Positions 3,248 to 24,643 of a stretch of DNA of 64,000 nucleotides are shown piece by piece; position 1 is the first letter of the stretch, and each line of letters starts with the position of its first letter. The position numbers and the translations under genes are program-made. The notes under the pieces are model-generated. The model was not told the DNA's origin, did not search any database, and saw only the letters and a program-made list of their open reading frames with translations. Location of the stretch: the NCBI RefSeq assembly GCF_053078305.1, contig NZ_CP166879.1. One strand, 5' to 3'.

Positions 3248-3309
3248 TGTACTTCTCCTGTTTACGTAAGACTAAAGTGTGAAAACTGAGTGATAATCAA
3301 CACAATACG

Positions 3310-4281
3310 TTACTTATCGATTTTGCTGATCAGATCCATCATTTTCAGTTTCGGATCGGTGGAAACCTTACGGACTTCCAGCTCAATACCGCGTGCATTC
3401 AGTTTTTTGAACGCCTCGATATCTTTTTCATCAACCGAAACCGCGTTATTCACCTGGGTTTTACCCTGACGGAATGCCATACCACCGACGTTAACAGAGG
3501 TGATTTTCACGCCGCCTTCAACGAGACGCTCTACATCTGTTGGGTTGGTAAATAACAGCATTACACGTTCGCCAGCATATTTCGGGTTGTTGTAGACGCG
3601 AATCATTTTGGCAACATCAACTACGTGTGCTGTTACGCCCGGAGGTGCAACCTGGGTGAGCAGTGTCTTACGAACGGTATCCGCAGCCACTTCATCACTA
3701 ACAACAATAATACGGGAGACATTGGTTTCTTTGGTCCAGCGGGTGGCGACCTGACCGTGAATCAGACGGTCGTCGATACGCGCAAGGCCAATAACCATGT
3801 AGTCGTTTGGCCCCATTGGTTTTGCCGGAGTTGGAGCCGATTTTGGTGCTGCGGCAGCGGGTGCTGGCGCGGCTTTTTCAACCGGTTTGGCTTTCAGTGC
3901 TTTCACGCCTTCACGGCCTGTTTCTACTGCCAGCGCAACCAGTTCATCAAAGCTTGGGTCATCATCACGAGCCATTAACGTTTCCACGAGCATTGGAATG
4001 TTAACGCCTGCAATGACTTCATAATGCTCTTTGTCGACGACAATGCGGCTGGCAGCATTGAACGGGCTGCCTCCCCATGTATCAACGAGAAACAGCACGC
4101 CTTTAGTGGTGTCGAGTTTTGCCAACTGAGCGTTGTACTTTTCAATCAGCGTTTCGGCATTTTCACCTGGAACGAAATCGATCCAGCCGACGTTTTCCTG
4201 CTCGCCTAACAGCATTTCTGCCGTTTTAAGCAACTGCTCTGCAGCCCAACCATGTGTGCCTATAACAATAGCAATGGTCAC
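3310..4281 (-). CDS. manX: PTS mannose transporter subunit IIAB (ManX)
   Basis: 323-aa two-domain protein with Ala/Pro-rich linker KAAPAPAAAAPKSAPTPAKP. Confidence 0.95.
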   Translation of the reverse strand: MTIAIVIGTHGWAAEQLLKTAEMLLGEQENVGWIDFVPGENAETLIEKYNAQLAKLDTTKGVLFLVDTWGGSPFNAASRIVVDKEHYEVIAGVNIPMLVETLMARDDDPSFDELVALAVETGREGVKALKAKPVEKAAPAPAAAAPKSAPTPAKPMGPNDYMVIGLARIDDRLIHGQVATRWTKETNVSRIIVVSDEVAADTVRKTLLTQVAPPGVTAHVVDVAKMIRVYNNPKYAGERVMLLFTNPTDVERLVEGGVKITSVNVGGMAFRQGKTQVNNAVSVDEKDIEAFKKLNARGIELEVRKVSTDPKLKMMDLISKIDK

Positions 4282-6303: not shown

Positions 6304-7902
6304 TTAACGTAACGGCATAATGGGCGTGATATGTCCATTATGCCGGGCGGGCGGCGGTTGGCTGCCCGCCAGCCATTTGGGAAAATCACGTAGCGGCATC
6401 GGCTGTGCGTACAAATACCCTTGCAAAATATGCACGCCATGACGGCGCAAATACTTCGCTTGTTCTTGCGTTTCCACGCCCTCCGCCACCAGTTCAATAT
6501 TCAGTCTTTGCCCCAGCGCGATGATGATATCGGTCACCGTCGAGTTAACCGCGTCAGAACCTATAGCTGCGGTAAATGACTTATCAATTTTCAGCACGTC
6601 AGGACGTAATGTTTCAAGCCAGGAAAATGAACTGTTGCCGGTGCCGAAGTCATCAATCGCCAGTTTGACATTTTTACGATGCAGCTCGCGGGCAATCCGA
6701 TAATCAACATCCAGTAAGGCATCGCGTTCGGTGATTTCGAGGATCAGTTGCTGAATCGGGTGAGCGCTAAACCAGTACTGATTGAGATCTTTTATCAGCA
6801 CACCACGGCGAAAATGGCTGGGTGCGACGTTAATGCCAACATGAAACTGACTACTCATTGGGAAAACATGGCGCTGACGAATGGTTTCTGCCATCACATA
6901 GCGGGTCAGTGGCACAATTAAATGATGTTCTTCCGCGATAGGAATAAACACATCCGGTGAAATCCAGCCCTGACGCGGATTGTTCCAGCGCAGCAAAATC
7001 TCTACACCAATACATTGCTGGCTGCGCGCATTAAGCAAAGGCTGACAGAACAATTCGAACTCATGTTGCGCCAGGCCCAGATTGATTTCGCGGGAAAAGC
7101 TCATCCGGTAAGCGGTCGCCAGCCAGGCGATGTAGCCCACCAGTAAACTTAGCAGCACCGCCAGCGGTAATTGTGTTGGAAGATAGTGCCATGCCAGCGC
7201 CGTAGCCCCCGGACCATTAACGTTAATGGTAAAAGGAAAGCGTTGCGAAGAAACCTGATAGTTTTCATTGTCTTCAGGTTGCGGAAGGGAATCTACCAGC
7301 CCATTACCATAGAGCAAATGCCGTTTGTCCACCGTCAGGCTGGCGCTACTGATTTGCGGCAGTTGTGGCTCAAGGAGCATTGCCGTCAGTAAGTCGATGT
7401 TAATCATCTCCATGACCCCAGCATTGCTACTGCCCGCTGCAGGCGTCCATTGAATCAAAACCGGACTGCCTTTAATCAGGGCACGGTCGATCGTCAGGCG
7501 TAAAAGTGGTTGCGGTGCAGGAAGTTCAGCCAGAATGTCCACGACGGGCACATTGCGATAACCAAAAATGCTGGAGCAATAGAGTGTGCCGTCTTGCACC
7601 AGGCCAATGGATCGCACAGTTTGGAGTTTTGCCGCCTGTTTACGTAATGGCAAATGGGCGACAGAGCAGGGCAGACCAATCAGCGGAAGCAAGACTTCGC
7701 TACCTGCCTGTAGGGGAAGCAGTACTTTATCTAATTCCTCTACAGCATGATTGGCGAATTGTACTACCCGTTGTTGATTTAAGTTACGCTGTGAAATAAA
7801 TCGCACGCTCAGGGTCGAAGCGAGCGTAACGAGTGCGCAAATCGTACAAACAATCATTCGATTACGGCGATAGGTTTTAATGATCCGTTGTGCTTTTTGC
7901 AT
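6304..7902 (-). CDS. pdeD: c-di-GMP phosphodiesterase PdeD (CSS-motif sensor + EAL domain)
   Basis: 532 aa from ATG 7900-7902; EAL signature in GVEILLRW; track ORF is 10 codons longer. Confidence 0.88.
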   Translation of the reverse strand: MQKAQRIIKTYRRNRMIVCTICALVTLASTLSVRFISQRNLNQQRVVQFANHAVEELDKVLLPLQAGSEVLLPLIGLPCSVAHLPLRKQAAKLQTVRSIGLVQDGTLYCSSIFGYRNVPVVDILAELPAPQPLLRLTIDRALIKGSPVLIQWTPAAGSSNAGVMEMINIDLLTAMLLEPQLPQISSASLTVDKRHLLYGNGLVDSLPQPEDNENYQVSSQRFPFTINVNGPGATALAWHYLPTQLPLAVLLSLLVGYIAWLATAYRMSFSREINLGLAQHEFELFCQPLLNARSQQCIGVEILLRWNNPRQGWISPDVFIPIAEEHHLIVPLTRYVMAETIRQRHVFPMSSQFHVGINVAPSHFRRGVLIKDLNQYWFSAHPIQQLILEITERDALLDVDYRIARELHRKNVKLAIDDFGTGNSSFSWLETLRPDVLKIDKSFTAAIGSDAVNSTVTDIIIALGQRLNIELVAEGVETQEQAKYLRRHGVHILQGYLYAQPMPLRDFPKWLAGSQPPPARHNGHITPIMPLR

Positions 7903-8032
7903 GCGGGCCACCCTGTAAGCGTATGGCGACAAACGCCTGACGCAACAGTGGAAGTGTAGTGGGGAATATTACAGCAGACGAGAAAGCGGGGATAAATTCG
8001 CCCATCCGTTGCAGATGGGCGAGTAAGAAGTA

Positions 8033-9397
8033 TTAGTCACACTGGACTTTGATTGCCAGACCACCGCGTGAGGTTTCGCGGTATTTGGCGTTCATGTCCT
8101 TACCGGTTTCGTACATCGTTTCGATGACCTTATCCAGCGAGACGCGCGGTGCACTGGTGCGGCGCAGAGCCATCCGTGCGGCGTTAATCGCCTTCACAGA
8201 TGCAATGGCATTACGCTCAATGCACGGCACCTGAACCTGCCCTGCAACCGGGTCGCAGGTTAAACCAAGGTTGTGTTCCATGCCAATTTCCGCCGCCACG
8301 CAAACCTGTTCCGGGCTACCGCCCAGCAGTTCTGCAAGACCCGCAGCAGCCATTGAACAGGCAACACCCACTTCGCCCTGGCAACCAACTTCCGCACCGG
8401 AAATAGAGGCGTTCATTTTATACAATGCACCAATCGCGCCCGCTGCCATAAAGTAACGGGTATAGATGTCCGGGCTGACCGATTCAATAAAGTGGTCATA
8501 GTAAGCCAGCACTGCCGGAACGATACCGCAGGCACCGTTGGTTGGCGCAGTTACCACACGACCACCGGCGGCGTTTTCTTCGTTAACTGCCAGCGCAAAC
8601 ATGTTTACCCAGTCAATGACATTCATCGGATCGTTAGACAGTTTATCGCTGGAAACCAGCATCCGGCGCAGGGCAGACGCACGACGTGGCACGCGCAGCG
8701 GGCCTGGCAGTACACCTTCGGTGTTCATCCCGCGATCGATACATGCCTGCATGGTTTGCCAGACATGCGCGAAATACTCGTCGATCTCTTTCTTGCTGTG
8801 CAGCGCCAGTTCGTTCTGCATAGCGAGACCAGACAGCGAATAGCCGGTTTCATTACAGTACGCGAGCAGTTCGGTGGCAGATTTGAACGGATACGGCACG
8901 CTCACTTCGTTGGCAGCATCCTGACCAAAGTGTTCTTCATCGACGATAAAACCGCCGCCGATGGAATAATAAGTTTTGCTGTAGACGACTTCATCGCCGT
9001 TATAGGCGTGGATTTGCATACCGTTTTCATGCAGCGGCAGGTTGCCGTTATGAAAACGCATCCCGTTGTCGCGCGGGAAATCCACTTCATGCCGTCCCTG
9101 TGCCAGCAGCAGACGTTCGCGCTCTTCTACGTCGCGAATAAAACCGGGAATACTGTCGATATCCACGGTGGCAGGTTCGTTACCTGCAAGACCCATAATA
9201 ATGGCGATATCGGTGTGGTGGCCTTTACCCGTCAGCGACAGTGAACCATAAACGTCCACGGCAACGCGAGTAATGCTATCCAGTAAGCCTTTTTCGACCA
9301 GATCATCGACGAACTGTTTACCCGCCTTCATAGGCCCTACGGTATGGGAAGATGAGGGACCAATCCCCACCTTAAACATGTCGAATAGACTAATCAC
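8033..9397 (-). CDS. sdaA: L-serine dehydratase 1
   Basis: 454-aa ORF, Fe-S L-serine dehydratase sequence. Confidence 0.95.
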
Positions 9398-19518: not shown

Positions 19519-20484
19519 CTACAAATCCAACACCAGGCGTTTACCCTTCGCACGCGAACAACAGATCAACATACTTTGCTGGCTGGCACGCTCTTCATCG
19601 CTAAAATACTGATCCCGATGGTCAGCTTCACCTTCCAGTATTGCCGTTTCGCAGGTTCCGCATACCCCTTCACGACATAAACATTCCACTTTCGCGGCTT
19701 TATTATTTTCAATAACCTGCAAAATAGTCATCTCTTCCGGCACCACAAACTCTTTTCCGGAACGGGCAAGCACCAGGGTAAATGCATCGCCGGTTTTGTC
19801 TTCGATAGCAAATTGCTCAAAGTGCAGCGTATCGGCGGCGATGTCCAGACGCGCAGCTTCACTTCTTACCGCTTCAATTAGCGCCTCGGGGCCACAGGTA
19901 TAAACGTGTGTGCCAGGTTCGATATCCGCCAATAATCGCGCTAATTCCAGTCGTGTTCCGGTTGATGAATGATGCAAATGGACTTTCTCAGCCTGCGGAT
20001 GCTGGACTAGCTCATCACGAAATGCGCAACTTTCTGGATTTCGCGAGCAGTAATGTAGCTGCCAGTCGACGTTGCTGTGTTGCAACTCTGCCATGTGCGA
20101 CAGGAAAGGGGTGATACCAATACCGCCCGCGATAAACAGATGCTTTCTGGCTGAGGGAATTAGCGCAAACAGGTTATTAGGCGTTGAGATCGTTAACCGA
20201 TCGCCCACTTTTACCTGCTGATGCAAAAAGCGGGAACCGCCGCGCGAGTTTTCTTCCAGTCGAACGGCAATCTGATAACTAGAGGTGTTATGCGGTGAAC
20301 TCAGTAGTGAATACGCATTGCTGTACTGGTTATCACCATCGCTCATCTGCACTATGATGTGACTTCCTCCGGTGAACGCAGGCAGCGGTTTGCCATCGGT
20401 TGCCACCAGCGTGAAGCGTTTCACCTGTTCGGTAAGCGGTTCCACCTGACTCACCTGTACTTCAAACATTTGATAGTCTGACAT
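19519..20484 (-). CDS. yeaX: Carnitine monooxygenase reductase subunit (FNR-like flavoprotein with 2Fe-2S ferredoxin domain)
   Basis: 321-aa ORF; C-terminal CREGVCGTC ferredoxin cysteine motif. Confidence 0.9.
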   Translation of the reverse strand: MSDYQMFEVQVSQVEPLTEQVKRFTLVATDGKPLPAFTGGSHIIVQMSDGDNQYSNAYSLLSSPHNTSSYQIAVRLEENSRGGSRFLHQQVKVGDRLTISTPNNLFALIPSARKHLFIAGGIGITPFLSHMAELQHSNVDWQLHYCSRNPESCAFRDELVQHPQAEKVHLHHSSTGTRLELARLLADIEPGTHVYTCGPEALIEAVRSEAARLDIAADTLHFEQFAIEDKTGDAFTLVLARSGKEFVVPEEMTILQVIENNKAAKVECLCREGVCGTCETAILEGEADHRDQYFSDEERASQQSMLICCSRAKGKRLVLDL

Positions 20485-20539
20485 TGCTGTACTCCATCAA
20501 AAATCAGCCCGGCGGCGGAAAATACCGCCGCCGATGTCA

Positions 20540-21664
20540 TTAGTCCTTAAATACCTGCGCCAGCAGATTATGGAAATGGGCGATACCATGTTCGGAAATG
20601 CCGCTACCGCTACTGTCGGCCATGATGCGCCCCTGACCACGATAGCCACGCGATTTCAGCCCTTTCTGTACGCTTTCAACCAGACGTAAATCTTCCGGAC
20701 GGAACACATCGCGATACCACTCAATCAGCGATTTTTGCTCGTCGGTTAACTCTTCATTGGTGAAGTAAATATCGTAGTTTTGCAGGGTAGTTTCAGAATC
20801 CACCGGGAATTCATAAATGACCGTCATCATCCCTTTGATCGGGGTGACGTTCAGCATCGTGCACGGCCACAGCCAGAAACCGTGGAATGCCGCATCCGTA
20901 CCCTCTTCAAATTTAAACGACTGTTCGGACGGTTTGGCGAAACCGTATTGCAGCGTCCAGTTACCGTGCATGGTGTGCCAGTAACGATCAACCTGTACGG
21001 AGTCGGAGAAACCTGGATGCGCCGGACCACAGTGATAGCACTCGAGATAGTTATCGACAATGTTCTTCCAGTTGGCAGGCGTGCGGGTGGTAAAGCGGGC
21101 CGCCAGTTTCAGATCGTGGACTTCCGGGCAGGCTTCCAGCACTTTCGCGCCCAGACCGGGTAACTGATCTTCTACGCTGGTGGCGTTGGGGTCCATGTTG
21201 ATGAAGACGAATCCGGCATATTCTTCCAGACGCACCGGAACCAGTTGCGCTTTGTCGCTATCGAAATTGGCGACGTTTTCGCAGTTACGTGCATGGGCCA
21301 GGTTGCCATCGAGTTTGAATGCCCATGCGTGATATGGGCAGGTAATCACATTTTTTGCTTTTCCTTCACCGCTCAACAACTGATGACCACGGTGCGGACA
21401 CACGTTATAGAACGCGCGCAAAACCTTATCACGACCGCGTACCAGCACGATGCTTTCGCCAATGATCTCACGCGTCACATAATCATTGGCATTCGCCAGT
21501 TCGCTGCTGTGAGCGACGCAAATCCAGCTTTTGGCGAAGACGTTCTCTTTTTCGTGTTCAAAGGCGTTCTGATCGGTATAAAAACGGGCAGGAATGGTCC
21601 ACGCCTCTTGCGGGTTAGCGCAAAAATTTTCGGGTAGTACAAAGTCAGGGCTCAGATTGCTCAT
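20540..21664 (-). CDS. yeaW: Carnitine monooxygenase oxygenase subunit (Rieske-type)
   Basis: 374 aa from ATG 21662-21664; Rieske motifs CPHRGH and CPYHAW; track ORF extends 40 codons upstream. Confidence 0.9.
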   Translation of the reverse strand: MSNLSPDFVLPENFCANPQEAWTIPARFYTDQNAFEHEKENVFAKSWICVAHSSELANANDYVTREIIGESIVLVRGRDKVLRAFYNVCPHRGHQLLSGEGKAKNVITCPYHAWAFKLDGNLAHARNCENVANFDSDKAQLVPVRLEEYAGFVFINMDPNATSVEDQLPGLGAKVLEACPEVHDLKLAARFTTRTPANWKNIVDNYLECYHCGPAHPGFSDSVQVDRYWHTMHGNWTLQYGFAKPSEQSFKFEEGTDAAFHGFWLWPCTMLNVTPIKGMMTVIYEFPVDSETTLQNYDIYFTNEELTDEQKSLIEWYRDVFRPEDLRLVESVQKGLKSRGYRGQGRIMADSSGSGISEHGIAHFHNLLAQVFKD

Positions 21665-21695
21665 AGGGATACCTTTATCGTTAGGATGATGGCGC

Positions 21696-23306
21696 TCAGT
21701 TGTCGCCTTTGAATACGGTTCCCGCAGGGAGCACTGGTGTTTTTTCCAGGGCTTCAACCGGTGTCTGCGGGAGATAATGTTCAACTTGATGAGCCGGAAT
21801 GTCGGCGTAATCCTGTTTCAGCCAGCGAATAAATCCGCCAACTTTCACCAGTAAAATGACGAGGAAGGGAAGGGCTGTGAGCACGACGGTGGTTTTCATC
21901 GTTTCCAGCGAAGCACCAGTAAACAAGATGGAAAGCGGGATCAGAGTGATCACCACGCACCAGAAAAGACGCAGCCCACGGTCAGGATCGTCACCTTCCT
22001 GGAGATTACGCGTACTGGTCGCCGCCATGGTGTAGGCCACTGCATCCATATGCGAGGCAAGGAAAATAATCATCACGCCCAGGTATGCGGCGAGGAACAA
22101 TTTACCGGCTGGCAACGACATCAGAACTTGCTGTACAGCTGTTTCGCCGCCCAGTGTTTCCAGCACCTGTGGGACGTTGATTACACCATTGATAAACTGG
22201 TGAATGGCATAGCTTTCCATTACGCCGAAGAAGAACCAGCAACCGACGGTGCTGCCGAGGATCAGTCCCCAGATAACTTCTTTAATCTTACGACCGCGGG
22301 AAACGCGGGTGACAAACATTGCTACGCCAGGCGTGTATGAGATCCACCACAGCCAGTAGAAAACGGTCCAGTTGCGGGTAAATGAACCATCGCCAAGCGG
22401 ATCGGTGAATAAGCTCATTTGCAGGAAGTTTTGCGTGGTCAGGCCGATGGCATTGATGATGCTGTTGGTAATAAATTCGGTTGGGCCGACAATCAGCACC
22501 AGTAATGGCAGCAGGAACGCGCCCCAGCCAACCATTTTGCTCAGACGTTGCAAACCGTTGTTGATACCAATCCACGAGCTTAGGCAAAAAATGCCGCCGG
22601 AAAGCAGTATCACAAATGCCTGCACGGTGAAGTTATCGGGTAAACCGGTCAGCGCGGAAAGCCCACGAGTAAAGGTTGCTGCGGTGACAACAAGGGAAAT
22701 AGTCAGTGCGCCGACAGTGGCGATCAGGAACATCAAATCAACCAGTTTTCCCCATGGGCCTTGCGGGCGAACGCCGGTAATCGCGGCAATAATGCCGGAA
22801 AGACTCAGACCTTTGTTTTTACGCACATGAAAGTGATAAGCCATGATTAATGAGGCCAGCGTATAAGTTGCCCAGGCGCTGATGCCCCAGTGGAAGAAGG
22901 AGTAAGGGACGCTAAATTCGAGTGCCTGTTGTGAACGCGGTGCGATATTTAATCCAGGCGTTTGATAATAATAGGCCCATTCAGCAACCCCCCAATAAAG
23001 CGTAGAAGAACCTAAACCGGCACAAATAAACATAAACAGCCAGGAGAGCGTGCTGTATTCCGGTTTTCCTTCGCCAAGACGAATATTGCCGTATTTACTG
23101 GTGGCTAAATAAATCACCAGTCCCATTGCCAGCAAAACCAATACCTGTACGGCGGAACCTAACGTACGCGTAACAAAAGTGTATATTGCGTTGGCCGCGT
23201 CGGCCGATTGTTGTGGGAAAAGGCTTAATGCAGCTGCGATGAAAAGAATGGCCACCAGGCTGATGCTTATCAGCGGCACATCTTTTTTCTTAACATTGCT
23301 CATCAT
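21696..23306 (-). CDS. yeaV: BCCT-family (betaine/carnitine/choline) transporter YeaV
   Basis: 536-aa ORF from ATG with AGGAGA Shine-Dalgarno; N-terminus carries a hydrophobic first TM segment resembling the CaiT N-terminus. Confidence 0.85.
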
Positions 23307-23510
23307 GAGTCATCTCCTGGGCATAAAAGCCCGTCTCTGGCTTTTGCCAGTTGTAATTATTTGCAGGGTAATGAGTTGTATGTTGTGTTTAACAAATTGA
23401 TTATTTGCATGCTACATAAATTAAACAATTAAGAATACGGAAAGCCATAAAACACGAAACGGAAACAATAAAAGGTGAAATGACGCAGGTTATTAACTGC
23501 AAAGAACGAA

Positions 23511-23538
23511 TAAAAAAAACCGCGTCAGTGACGCGGTT
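23511..23538 (-). terminator. Intrinsic terminator downstream of yeaU
   Basis: Minus-strand hairpin ACCGCGTCA-ctg-ACGCGGT followed by T8-9. Confidence 0.8.
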
Positions 23539-23557
23539 CAAATAAACTGGTTTGACC

Positions 23558-24643
23558 TTAACGCAAAATAATTTTGCAAATCGCGTCGGCAACCTGTGGC
23601 GTGGTGGCACTGCCTTTCATATCCGGTGTTTTCGGCCCGTGAGCAATCACTTCTTCAATCGCTGCCAGAATACCGTTATGCGCTTGCTGGAAACGCTCAT
23701 CGCCATTGCCGAGAAAATCGAGCATCATTGCACCGGCCCAAATTGTGGCGATAGGGTTAGCAATATTTTTCCCGTAGATATCCGGCGCGGAACCGTGGAC
23801 AGGCTCGAAGAGCGACGGGAAAGTGCGTTCCGGATTCAGGTTGGCGGATGGGGCAATGCCAATGGTGCCGGTGCAGGCTGGGCCAAGATCGGAAAGGATA
23901 TCGCCAAACAAATTGGAGGCCACCACCACATCGAAGCGTTCCGGCTGCATCACAAAACGCGCGCAGAGAATATCAATATGCTGCTTGTCCCAGCGGATCT
24001 CCGGGTAATTCTCGGCCATTGCTTCCACTCGCTCATCCCAGTACGGCATGCTGATGGCTAAACCGTTTGATTTAGTGGCAGAAGTTAGCGTCTTACGTGG
24101 GCGGCTTTGCGCAAGTTCGAAGGCATAACGCAAAATGCGATCGACACCACGACGCGTAAATACCGATTCCTGAATGACGACTTCATGCTCTGTACCTTCA
24201 TTCACTCTACCGCCGAGCGAGGAATATTCGCCTTCGGTGTTTTCCCTGACCACGTAAAAATCGATGTCGCCAGGCTGTTTTCCCGCCAGCGGGCAGGGAA
24301 CGCCAGGAAAGAGACGAACCGGGCGCAGGTTGACGTACTGGTCGAATTCACGACGAAATTTCAGCAGCGAACCCCACAACGAAATATGGTCCGGAACGGT
24401 GTCCGGCCAGCCGACGGCACCAAAATAGATGGCGTCGAAACGGCTAAGTTGCTCATGCCAGTCGTCCGGCATCATTTTACCGTGATGGCTGTAATACTCG
24501 CAGCTCGCCCACTCCATTTGCTCAAAACTCAAGGCGAAGCCCCAGCGCTCAGCGGCAGCCTGTAACACGCGAATCCCTTCAGGAAGGACTTCTTTGCCAA
24601 TCCCGTCTCCCGGGATCGCAGCAATACGCATCGTTTTCATCAT
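23558..24643 (-). CDS. dmlA: D-malate/tartrate dehydrogenase (decarboxylating), isocitrate/isopropylmalate dehydrogenase family
   Basis: 361-aa ORF, recognisable YeaU/DmlA sequence. Confidence 0.92.
   Translation of the reverse strand: MMKTMRIAAIPGDGIGKEVLPEGIRVLQAAAERWGFALSFEQMEWASCEYYSHHGKMMPDDWHEQLSRFDAIYFGAVGWPDTVPDHISLWGSLLKFRREFDQYVNLRPVRLFPGVPCPLAGKQPGDIDFYVVRENTEGEYSSLGGRVNEGTEHEVVIQESVFTRRGVDRILRYAFELAQSRPRKTLTSATKSNGLAISMPYWDERVEAMAENYPEIRWDKQHIDILCARFVMQPERFDVVVASNLFGDILSDLGPACTGTIGIAPSANLNPERTFPSLFEPVHGSAPDIYGKNIANPIATIWAGAMMLDFLGNGDERFQQAHNGILAAIEEVIAHGPKTPDMKGSATTPQVADAICKIILR

Follow-up and report, generated by a model that had tools for sequence, protein, structure and literature searches.

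The gene yeaV is listed as 481 amino acids long in the Escherichia coli K-12 reference genome and as 536 amino acids long in the DNA analysed here. This raises the question of where yeaV begins and why the two lengths differ. The window, meaning the whole stretch of 64,000 nucleotides that was analysed, is from contig NZ_CP166879.1 (RefSeq assembly GCF_053078305.1). The ORF listing gave a minus-strand frame at 21696-23306 which opens with ATG and runs for 536 codons before the stop. The minus-strand read across the yeaV start is cccAGGAGAtgactcATGATG. The features that bear on the start codon are as follows.

21696-23306, minus strand: yeaV coding sequence, full-length BCCT-family transporter, 536 amino acids and stop (ORF list)
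23313-23318, minus strand: Shine-Dalgarno sequence AGGAGA, 6 nt ahead of the first ATG (sequence read)
23304-23306, minus strand: ATG1, the most likely start codon (conserved column, first residue of orthologues, RefSeq CDS of 1611 nt)
23301-23303, minus strand: ATG2, codon 2, a possible but less likely start (same Shine-Dalgarno sequence, 3 nt farther away)
23139-23141, minus strand: internal TTG, codon 56 (Leu56 here), the start of the b1801 CDS in K-12
23124-23126, minus strand: internal ATG, codon 61, giving a 476 amino acid form; the start in other pipelines on the K-12-type allele

The original prediction had placed the start at the paired ATG codons (23301-23306) behind AGGAGA, and this was borne out. 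When the 20 nt upstream of each candidate were paired with the 3' end of the 16S rRNA the duplex energy was -7.4 kcal/mol at the ATG pair, compared to -3.8 kcal/mol at TTG56 and -3.3 kcal/mol at ATG61. The background of the region was -2.0 ± 2.3 kcal/mol with a 5th percentile of -5.6 kcal/mol, and the energy at the ATG pair was at approximately the 1st to 5th percentile of this background. The features of the yeaV start exceed chance. In the DNA alignment the Shine-Dalgarno sequence GCCCAGGAGAT was kept in only two of the three groups compared, unaltered in Klebsiella and carrying a single change in Citrobacter/Salmonella. ATG1 was invariant in Klebsiella, Citrobacter/Salmonella and Serratia. 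The second ATG is specific to E. coli, since at codon 2 both Klebsiella and Citrobacter/Salmonella had TTG and Serratia had CAG. In the protein alignment M1 of YeaV was placed against the first residue of the orthologue in 11 of 14 cases. The RefSeq annotation of the intact allele (WP_000987525.1, 1611 nt, 536 amino acids) also starts at the upstream ATG.

Initiation at the second ATG (23303-23301) would give a protein of 535 amino acids, one residue shorter and with unchanged biology. Both ATG codons share one Shine-Dalgarno sequence with equal predicted duplex energy, and the second, 9 nt from AGGAGA, is still within a usable distance; the sequence alone does not separate the two. This start is considered improbable given that the three other genera keep ATG1 and have TTG or CAG at codon 2, that M1 matches the first residue of most orthologues, that the 6 nt spacing of ATG1 is closer to the usual optimum and that PGAP also chooses ATG1. 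ATG1 is therefore most likely the yeaV start codon.

The internal codons were weighed as true or additional starts in the window. Initiation at TTG56 or ATG61 would yield 481 or 476 amino acids and leave the upstream 55 codons untranslated or as a separate leader. The shorter length is used by the K-12 reference and by names derived from UniProt, and the match to the TIGR00842 bcct subfamily model begins only at residue 55. Codon 56 was CTG in Klebsiella, Citrobacter/Salmonella and Serratia, and therefore the internal start codon TTG has no counterpart there. The weak Shine-Dalgarno pairing of both codons also argues against them, as do the conservation and the predicted structure of the first 55 residues.

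Orthologues found by database search were 528 to 572 amino acids long and came from Klebsiella, Enterobacter, Citrobacter/Salmonella, Shimwellia, Serratia, Yersinia, Xenorhabdus, Pseudomonas, Aeromonas, Crenobacter, Cupriavidus, Achromobacter and Helicobacter. Their N-termini, from more than 10 genera, aligned with the window YeaV from residue 1. Among 63 orthologues L12, P31 and A38 were invariant and D9, T46, G50 and Q54 were nearly so. Residues 1-55 alone gave an ungapped alignment with the same residues of a Pseudomonas orthologue (identity: 45%, E = 3e-14). The dN/dS ratio of codons 1-55 was 0.14-0.20 between E. coli, Klebsiella and Citrobacter/Salmonella, with about 23 of 41 differences at third positions. 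Codons 1-55 are thus coding and under purifying selection. The Pfam BCCT profile (PF02028) matched residues 14-499 over profile positions 3-485 of 485 with 406 bits against a cut-off of 27, and this complete coverage is reached only when the protein starts upstream.

A hydrophobic first transmembrane segment, removed by a start at TTG56, had been claimed for the N-terminus, and both hydropathy and structure prediction agreed with it. Hydropathy peaks were present at residues 10-30 and 47-70. An AlphaFold2 model was built from a 63-sequence alignment (mean pLDDT 84.7, pTM 0.85; residues 1-4 below 50) and placed two helices in this part of the protein.

23220-23279, minus strand: transmembrane helix 1, codons 10-29 (AlphaFold2 helix, block pLDDT 86-89; hydropathy maximum at 12-30)
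23100-23216, minus strand: long helix 2, a periplasmic extension and transmembrane helix 2, codons 31-69 (AlphaFold2, pLDDT 83-94)

Residues 1-55 make up BCCT transmembrane helix 1 and the leading part of helix 2. According to the model a protein initiated at L56 would be without transmembrane helix 1 and would start halfway along helix 2. The N-terminus had also been likened to that of CaiT, and the likeness was found: the CaiT family model aligned from YeaV residue 16 and the sequence of the crystal structure from residue 26. The advice to align the 536 amino acid translation to related carriers gave the same CaiT sequence alignment and a fold match to BetT; in Foldseek the YeaV model matched CaiT, BetT, TmaT and BetP with TM-scores of 0.84-0.85 over 483-515 columns. 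A start at TTG56 or ATG61 in the window is very improbable. The Shine-Dalgarno sequence, the orthologue alignment, the selection on codons 1-55 and the model all favour the upstream ATG that had been proposed. On the evidence of the sequence yeaV in the window begins there, with the internal TTG read simply as Leu56.

The full-length protein belongs to a described family. The NCBIfam YeaV equivalog NF007412 matched residues 1-536 over positions 1-536 of 536 with 1033 bits against a cut-off of 647. The window YeaV is the same protein as the RefSeq/NCBIfam YeaV (NF007412/PRK09950; WP_000987525.1-type, 536 amino acids), the standard annotation of the intact allele, with no difference and at the same place between dmlA and yeaW. 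It was 100% identical to the representative of a cluster of 10327 members named 'BCCT family transporter YeaV' (536 amino acids). The Trp-rich signature of transmembrane helix 8 in BCCT carriers is WTxFYWxWW...RxSRGR, and it was present at residues 312-339, with W313, W321, R334, S336, G338 and R339 invariant in the 63 orthologues. The AlphaFold2 model and the Foldseek matches showed the 12-helix LeuT/APC fold of the BCCT family as its architecture is described (PMC11323884). In these carriers helices 3-7 and 8-12 form the inverted-repeat core and helix 2 contributes to the trimer contact (PMC11323884). YeaV would accordingly be a 12-helix BCCT secondary transporter of 536 amino acids in which residues 10-29 form helix 1, residues 31-69 end as helix 2 and helices 3-12 form a LeuT-type inverted-repeat core.

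Three related models scored below their cut-offs, namely the CaiT equivalog NF002887 (346 bits against 541), the glycine betaine BCCT model NF047988 (312 against 650) and the BetT model NF007399 (227 against 695). By the NCBI curated cut-offs YeaV is classed as neither CaiT nor BetT nor a glycine betaine carrier. CaiT, an L-carnitine/gamma-butyrobetaine antiporter (PDB 2WSX, 3HFX, 2WSW, 4M8J), shared the fold (TM-score 0.84, 27-28% identity over 483-486 columns) and differs in its setting, as it lies in the cai operon while yeaV lies in the dml/yeaWX cluster. The best match by sequence to a solved structure was DddT (PDB 21fh, 21ff and related entries; E = 3e-100), with YeaV residues 16-498 aligned to chain residues 14-498, transmembrane helices 1 and 2 included. 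DddT is an importer of DMSP. Its substrate specificity cannot be transferred to YeaV.

The length of 481 amino acids given for the reference had been equated with a start at the TTG of codon 56 (536 - 55 = 481), and the CDS of b1801 in K-12 does start at that codon. It begins TTGGTTTTGCTG in NC_000913.3 and is listed as 'putative transporter YeaV' (1446 nt, 481 amino acids). The premise implied by this comparison, that the reference has the same DNA and a different choice of start, failed. In a search of complete genomes the K-12 MG1655 sequence covered only 88% of the region, as two pieces. A three-way DNA alignment and an analysis of the junction defined the missing part.

23179-23403, minus strand: 225 bp segment, present in the window and deleted in K-12-type alleles

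The placement of the 225 bp is ambiguous by 1 bp, with 23178-23402 as the alternative. The deleted DNA comprises 97 bp ahead of the gene, in which the Shine-Dalgarno sequence lies, codons 1-42 with both ATG codons, and 2 nt of codon 43. An in-frame TAA is present in K-12 four codons upstream of the deletion junction, and for this reason TTG56 is the first start codon left. After the deletion TTG56 would thus be the first start available and ATG61 the next. The K-12 protein (b1801, NP_416315.1, UniRef YEAV_ECOLI) is from the same locus and is identical to residues 57-536 of the window YeaV. It differs in being without the 225 bp that hold the Shine-Dalgarno sequence, the start codon and codons 1-43, so that its CDS is drawn from TTG56. 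A lesion (stop or frameshift) in the reference between 23142 and 23306 had been named as evidence against the upstream start. Such a lesion is literally present in K-12, and the start call for the window stands unrefuted.

The junction had a microhomology of 1 bp only. Recombination between 7 bp TTTGTTA repeats that lie 219 bp apart was considered as a mechanism and rejected, as it would not yield the observed junction. The bare difference in length would by itself also fit an insertion of 225 bp in the lineage of the window, with K-12 ancestral. This reading is scarcely credible and was already refuted by the outgroups, since a homologous N-terminus is present in Klebsiella, Citrobacter/Salmonella, Serratia, Yersinia, Xenorhabdus, Pseudomonas, Aeromonas, Cupriavidus and others; the segment is moreover coding sequence under selection. 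The deletion is the derived state because the long form is found in every outgroup genus.

The deletion allele was labelled 'pseudogene; incomplete; missing N-terminus' by PGAP in 25 of 25 other genomes inspected, including another MG1655 assembly and the B-lineage strain C41(DE3). The 481 and 476 amino acid forms of YeaV are each on at least 1000 contigs in public protein collections. The K-12 junction was carried by 13 of 14 sampled public loci annotated with 481 or 476 amino acids, among them five of the six sampled with the 476 amino acid form. The remaining locus (L020) had the intact segment with a 1 bp insertion which shifts the frame near codon 25. Every sampled 481 or 476 amino acid annotation was therefore a deletion allele or a frameshifted allele, which argues further against an internal start in the window. 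No intact allele mis-annotated from TTG56 or ATG61 was found among these 14 loci. A yeaV feature overlapped the 225 bp segment in 19 of 19 sampled full-length matches.

The distribution of both alleles was surveyed in 5426 complete E. coli genomes. The yeaV region was present in 4374 genomes and the locus was absent from about 1050. The 225 bp segment was present in 2930 genomes and the exact K-12 junction in 1439, including K-12 and a B-lineage strain. The junction was queried as a 52-mer (26 + 26 nt), a design in which no match can be seeded by an intact allele. Added together, the genomes with the segment and those with the junction came within 5 of the number of region-bearing genomes. About one in four sequenced E. 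coli thus has the deletion. The difference between 481 and 536 amino acids reflects a polymorphism between strains, not an error in the start site. It is very likely that the window holds intact yeaV from the ATG at 23306 and that the 481 amino acid reference form is the product of the derived 225 bp deletion of K-12.

The deletion also reaches into the DNA upstream of the gene, where two features were recorded.

23387-23420, minus strand: upstream block shared with Klebsiella and Citrobacter/Salmonella, a candidate promoter or operator (from alignment)
23517-23539, minus strand: terminator-like hairpin and T-run after dmlA (terminator scan; stem of 10 pairs, 6 of them GC)

The terminator-like hairpin after dmlA implies a promoter of yeaV's own within 23307-23516. 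A -10-like AATAAT is present in the block at 23400-23405, with TTGTTT 17 nt upstream at 23423-23428. No sigma-70-like site was reported in 23100-23650 at the thresholds of the promoter scan, so TTGTTT-17-AATAAT is a candidate yeaV promoter that the scan did not support. The left edge of the K-12 deletion is inside the AATAAT hexamer. Two small hairpins just 5' of the Shine-Dalgarno sequence had a z-score of -2.5 as single-strand RNA. No compensatory changes were found in them across three species, and they were rejected as an RNA element on that ground. A sub-threshold Rfam match to anti-hemB in 23250-23600 (23 bits against 49.5) fell on the dmlA terminator hairpin and was put down to chance.

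With its start region removed the K-12 transporter is most likely inactive, and expression of the operon may also be weakened. The state of the remnant was examined by comparing alleles. Between K-12 and the window the shared 493 codons had 21 synonymous and 0 non-synonymous changes, and the K-12 remnant is therefore without gross decay. No internal stops were found in 22 uninterrupted deletion alleles. The overall ratio of non-synonymous to synonymous changes was 10:21 in the remnant operon and 10:21 in the flanking genes. Among 20 natural deletion-allele genomes singletons in the yeaV remnant, yeaW and 5' yeaX were 8 non-synonymous to 3 synonymous, and in the flanking leuE, dmlR and dmlA of the same genomes 6 to 14 (one-sided Fisher p = 0.028, for a grouping made post hoc and in deletion-allele genomes only). 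Variants shared between genomes in the remnant operon were 2 non-synonymous to 18 synonymous. The excess of non-synonymous singletons hints that constraint on the operon was relaxed recently. Additional lesions in deletion alleles were IS1A at two different sites and a 1 bp deletion at codon 385. Intact alleles had lesions too, namely ISVsa5 in one strain, the L020 frameshift, and IS1B in place of yeaV-yeaW in one strain.

Published work on K-12 bears on the same point. Knockout and overexpression of yeaV were reported to change the uptake of pantothenate, kynurenate, carnitine and others in a metabolomics study (PMC10971958), the strains behind these data being confirmed as Keio and ASKA. If the transport phenotypes are real the truncated remnant is not dead. 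K-12, BL21 and DH10B have been tabulated as formers of trimethylamine from carnitine (PMC6200775), and on that account YeaV is not required for carnitine to enter the cell and yeaWX remains expressed or expressible in deletion strains.

These observations leave room for a remnant without transmembrane helix 1 and half of helix 2 that is made from TTG56 or ATG61 and works, in which case the lost helices would be dispensable and the protein a short isoform and not a pseudogene. Loss of a helix pair would preserve the topology of the helix 3-12 core, which is the transport unit (PMC11323884), and the altered uptake of several metabolites including carnitine in K-12 strains (PMC10971958) would fit, as would the lack of non-synonymous differences and of internal stops. 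Against it, the Shine-Dalgarno sequence is gone and the remaining start codons are weakly paired, helix 2 takes part in the trimer contacts of BCCT carriers (PMC11323884), and every orthologue keeps the N-terminus with its invariant residues. The singleton contrast between yeaV-yeaW-yeaX and the flanking genes (p = 0.03, post hoc) and the IS1 insertions and frameshift within the remnant also count against function, and the compounds of the metabolomics study are broad and chemically unlike BCCT substrates. A working short isoform is unlikely. The wider proposition, that the deletion leaves either a working transporter which starts at TTG56 or ATG61 without helix 1 and half of helix 2, or a silenced yeaVWX carnitine-to-trimethylamine operon, is rather doubtful. 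Inactivation of the transporter in K-12 is the preferred reading.

The likely role of the intact protein was taken from its gene neighbourhood.

23558-24643, minus strand: dmlA, D-malate/3-isopropylmalate dehydrogenase, upstream neighbour (ORF list, RefSeq)
20540-21664, minus strand: yeaW (cntA), carnitine monooxygenase oxygenase subunit, 31 bp downstream of yeaV (RefSeq layout)
19519-20484, minus strand: yeaX (cntB), carnitine monooxygenase reductase subunit (ORF list, RefSeq)

The listed ORF of yeaW extends to a TTG at 21784 and its annotated start is the ATG at 21664. A divergent LysR-type gene beside dmlA is dmlR. The order dmlR-dmlA-yeaV-yeaW-(ALDH)-yeaX was kept in Klebsiella, Serratia and Citrobacter/Salmonella, where the clusters have an extra aldehyde dehydrogenase between yeaW and yeaX. 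The locus has the make-up of a carnitine-catabolic cluster, with yeaV beside cntA/cntB, a LysR regulator and a malate dehydrogenase. In Acinetobacter baumannii the BCCT carrier Aci01347 was shown experimentally to take up carnitine and to be required for growth on it, and its cluster encodes a LysR regulator, a tartrate/malate dehydrogenase, CntA/CntB and a malic-semialdehyde dehydrogenase (PMC6562126). A role of YeaV in carnitine uptake is suggested because the BCCT gene of this cluster of the same content is a carnitine importer. The likeness is drawn from the gene content of the clusters and not from sequence; Aci01347 (551 amino acids) was absent among the best 120 matches to YeaV. The clusters also differ in that the malic-semialdehyde dehydrogenase of Acinetobacter has no aldehyde dehydrogenase counterpart in the E. 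coli cluster. The most likely substrate of YeaV is L-carnitine or a closely related quaternary amine, imported for the YeaW/YeaX monooxygenase, an assignment that would follow from gene context. In O157:H7 Sakai, whose lineage has the intact allele, yeaV and yeaW are among the genes reported to rise when growth shifts between phases in glucose minimal medium (PMC2241611).

The 536 amino acid start is already the standard RefSeq annotation, so no correction is needed for the window. The only record open to revision is b1801 in the K-12 reference, where the remnant is listed as an ordinary CDS. A literature search on yeaV/b1801 found no paper describing the K-12 truncation. Experiments on yeaV that relied on the Keio knockout or the ASKA clone examined a 5'-truncated remnant without ribosome binding site, transmembrane helix 1 and half of helix 2. 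Studies using K-12 yeaV reagents include the transporter-deorphanisation metabolomics (PMC10971958) and a trimethylamine-perception screen (PMC3884056). Negative or odd results obtained with these reagents would have little bearing on the real transporter. The practical value of the finding is modest and concerns users of K-12 yeaV reagents and the curation of b1801. The 52 nt junction provides a simple strain-typing marker. For studies of carnitine-to-trimethylamine conversion in gut E. coli a strain with the intact allele is advisable. If the deletion does silence the operon, the formation of trimethylamine from carnitine would be specific to certain lineages of the species, with the junction as its marker.

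The window is not the K-12 reference, although the original prediction appears to have assumed that it was. Across positions 12000-36000 the closest complete E. coli genome was strain ES5 (99.7% identity), while K-12 matched the yeaV region at about 98.6%, so the window belongs to a strain that this genome collection does not include.

Two short features were found upstream of yeaV.

Sequence features upstream of yeaV
23319-23350: a pair of small GC hairpins, CTGGC-AAAA-GCCAG and GGGC-TTTTAT-GCCC, directly 5' of the yeaV Shine-Dalgarno sequence
23400-23405, minus strand: -10-like AATAAT within a conserved block

The sequence of both hairpins is kept in Klebsiella and Citrobacter/Salmonella, and the region (23319-23350) had a folding z-score of -2.5. 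No compensatory changes were seen in the hairpins across the three sequences, and an Rfam search gave no match to them. The alignment also showed that Klebsiella and Citrobacter/Salmonella share a conserved block, TTTATGTAGCATGCAAATAATCAATTTGTTAAAC, at window 23387-23428, 5' of yeaV. In this block TTGTTT lies 17 nt upstream of the AATAAT hexamer, and the K-12 deletion has its left end within this hexamer. A consensus promoter scan of 23100-23650, which included the block, reported nothing. The block may be the promoter of the operon or a site for a regulator.

The longest yeaW ORF starts with TTG at 21784 and encodes 414 amino acids (window 20540-21784), overlapping the 3' end of yeaV. Annotation and homology place the start at the ATG at 21664, giving 374 amino acids. 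Within the window, yeaW is a second case in which the ORF called mechanically departs from the real gene.

The clusters of Klebsiella, Serratia, and Citrobacter/Salmonella encode an aldehyde dehydrogenase (PF00171, 482-483 amino acids) between yeaW and yeaX, whereas E. coli has none there.

Aldehyde dehydrogenase genes (PF00171) in the fetched loci
L005 (Klebsiella), 6788-8236
L006 (Serratia), 6809-8257
L007 (Citrobacter/Salmonella), 6787-8238

The E. coli yeaX-yeaW gap is only 55 bp (window 20485-20539), and in carnitine breakdown the E. coli cluster therefore lacks the step presumed to be that of malic-semialdehyde dehydrogenase.

The yeaV region had no match whatever in about 1050 of the 5426 complete E. 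coli genomes, yet all but one had partial matches to the 24 kb around it; in some E. coli lineages, therefore, the cluster has suffered a larger loss. One copy of the yeaV region is plasmid-borne. Additional lesions at the yeaV locus are many and independent of one another.

Additional lesions at the yeaV locus (L, fetched loci; H10, a genome match)
L023, 3404-4176: IS1A in the deletion allele, first site
L027, 3575-4344: IS1A in the deletion allele, at a second, different site
L035, codon 385: 1-bp deletion in one yeaV remnant
H10, strain W444: ISVsa5 (IS4-like) in an intact yeaV allele
L020, near codon 25: 1-bp insertion in another intact yeaV allele
L022, strain SL124, 3288-3985: IS1B in place of yeaV-yeaW

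Variants from leuE to yeaX were counted in 20 deletion-allele genomes (L024-L045). Singletons in what remains of yeaV, in yeaW, and in the 5' portion of yeaX comprised 8 non-synonymous and 3 synonymous changes, compared to 6 and 14 in leuE, dmlR, and dmlA (p = 0.028, with the grouping made post hoc). Within the operon, shared variants numbered 2 non-synonymous and 18 synonymous. This pattern hints that, since the deletion, constraint has been relaxed on the whole operon and not on yeaV alone.
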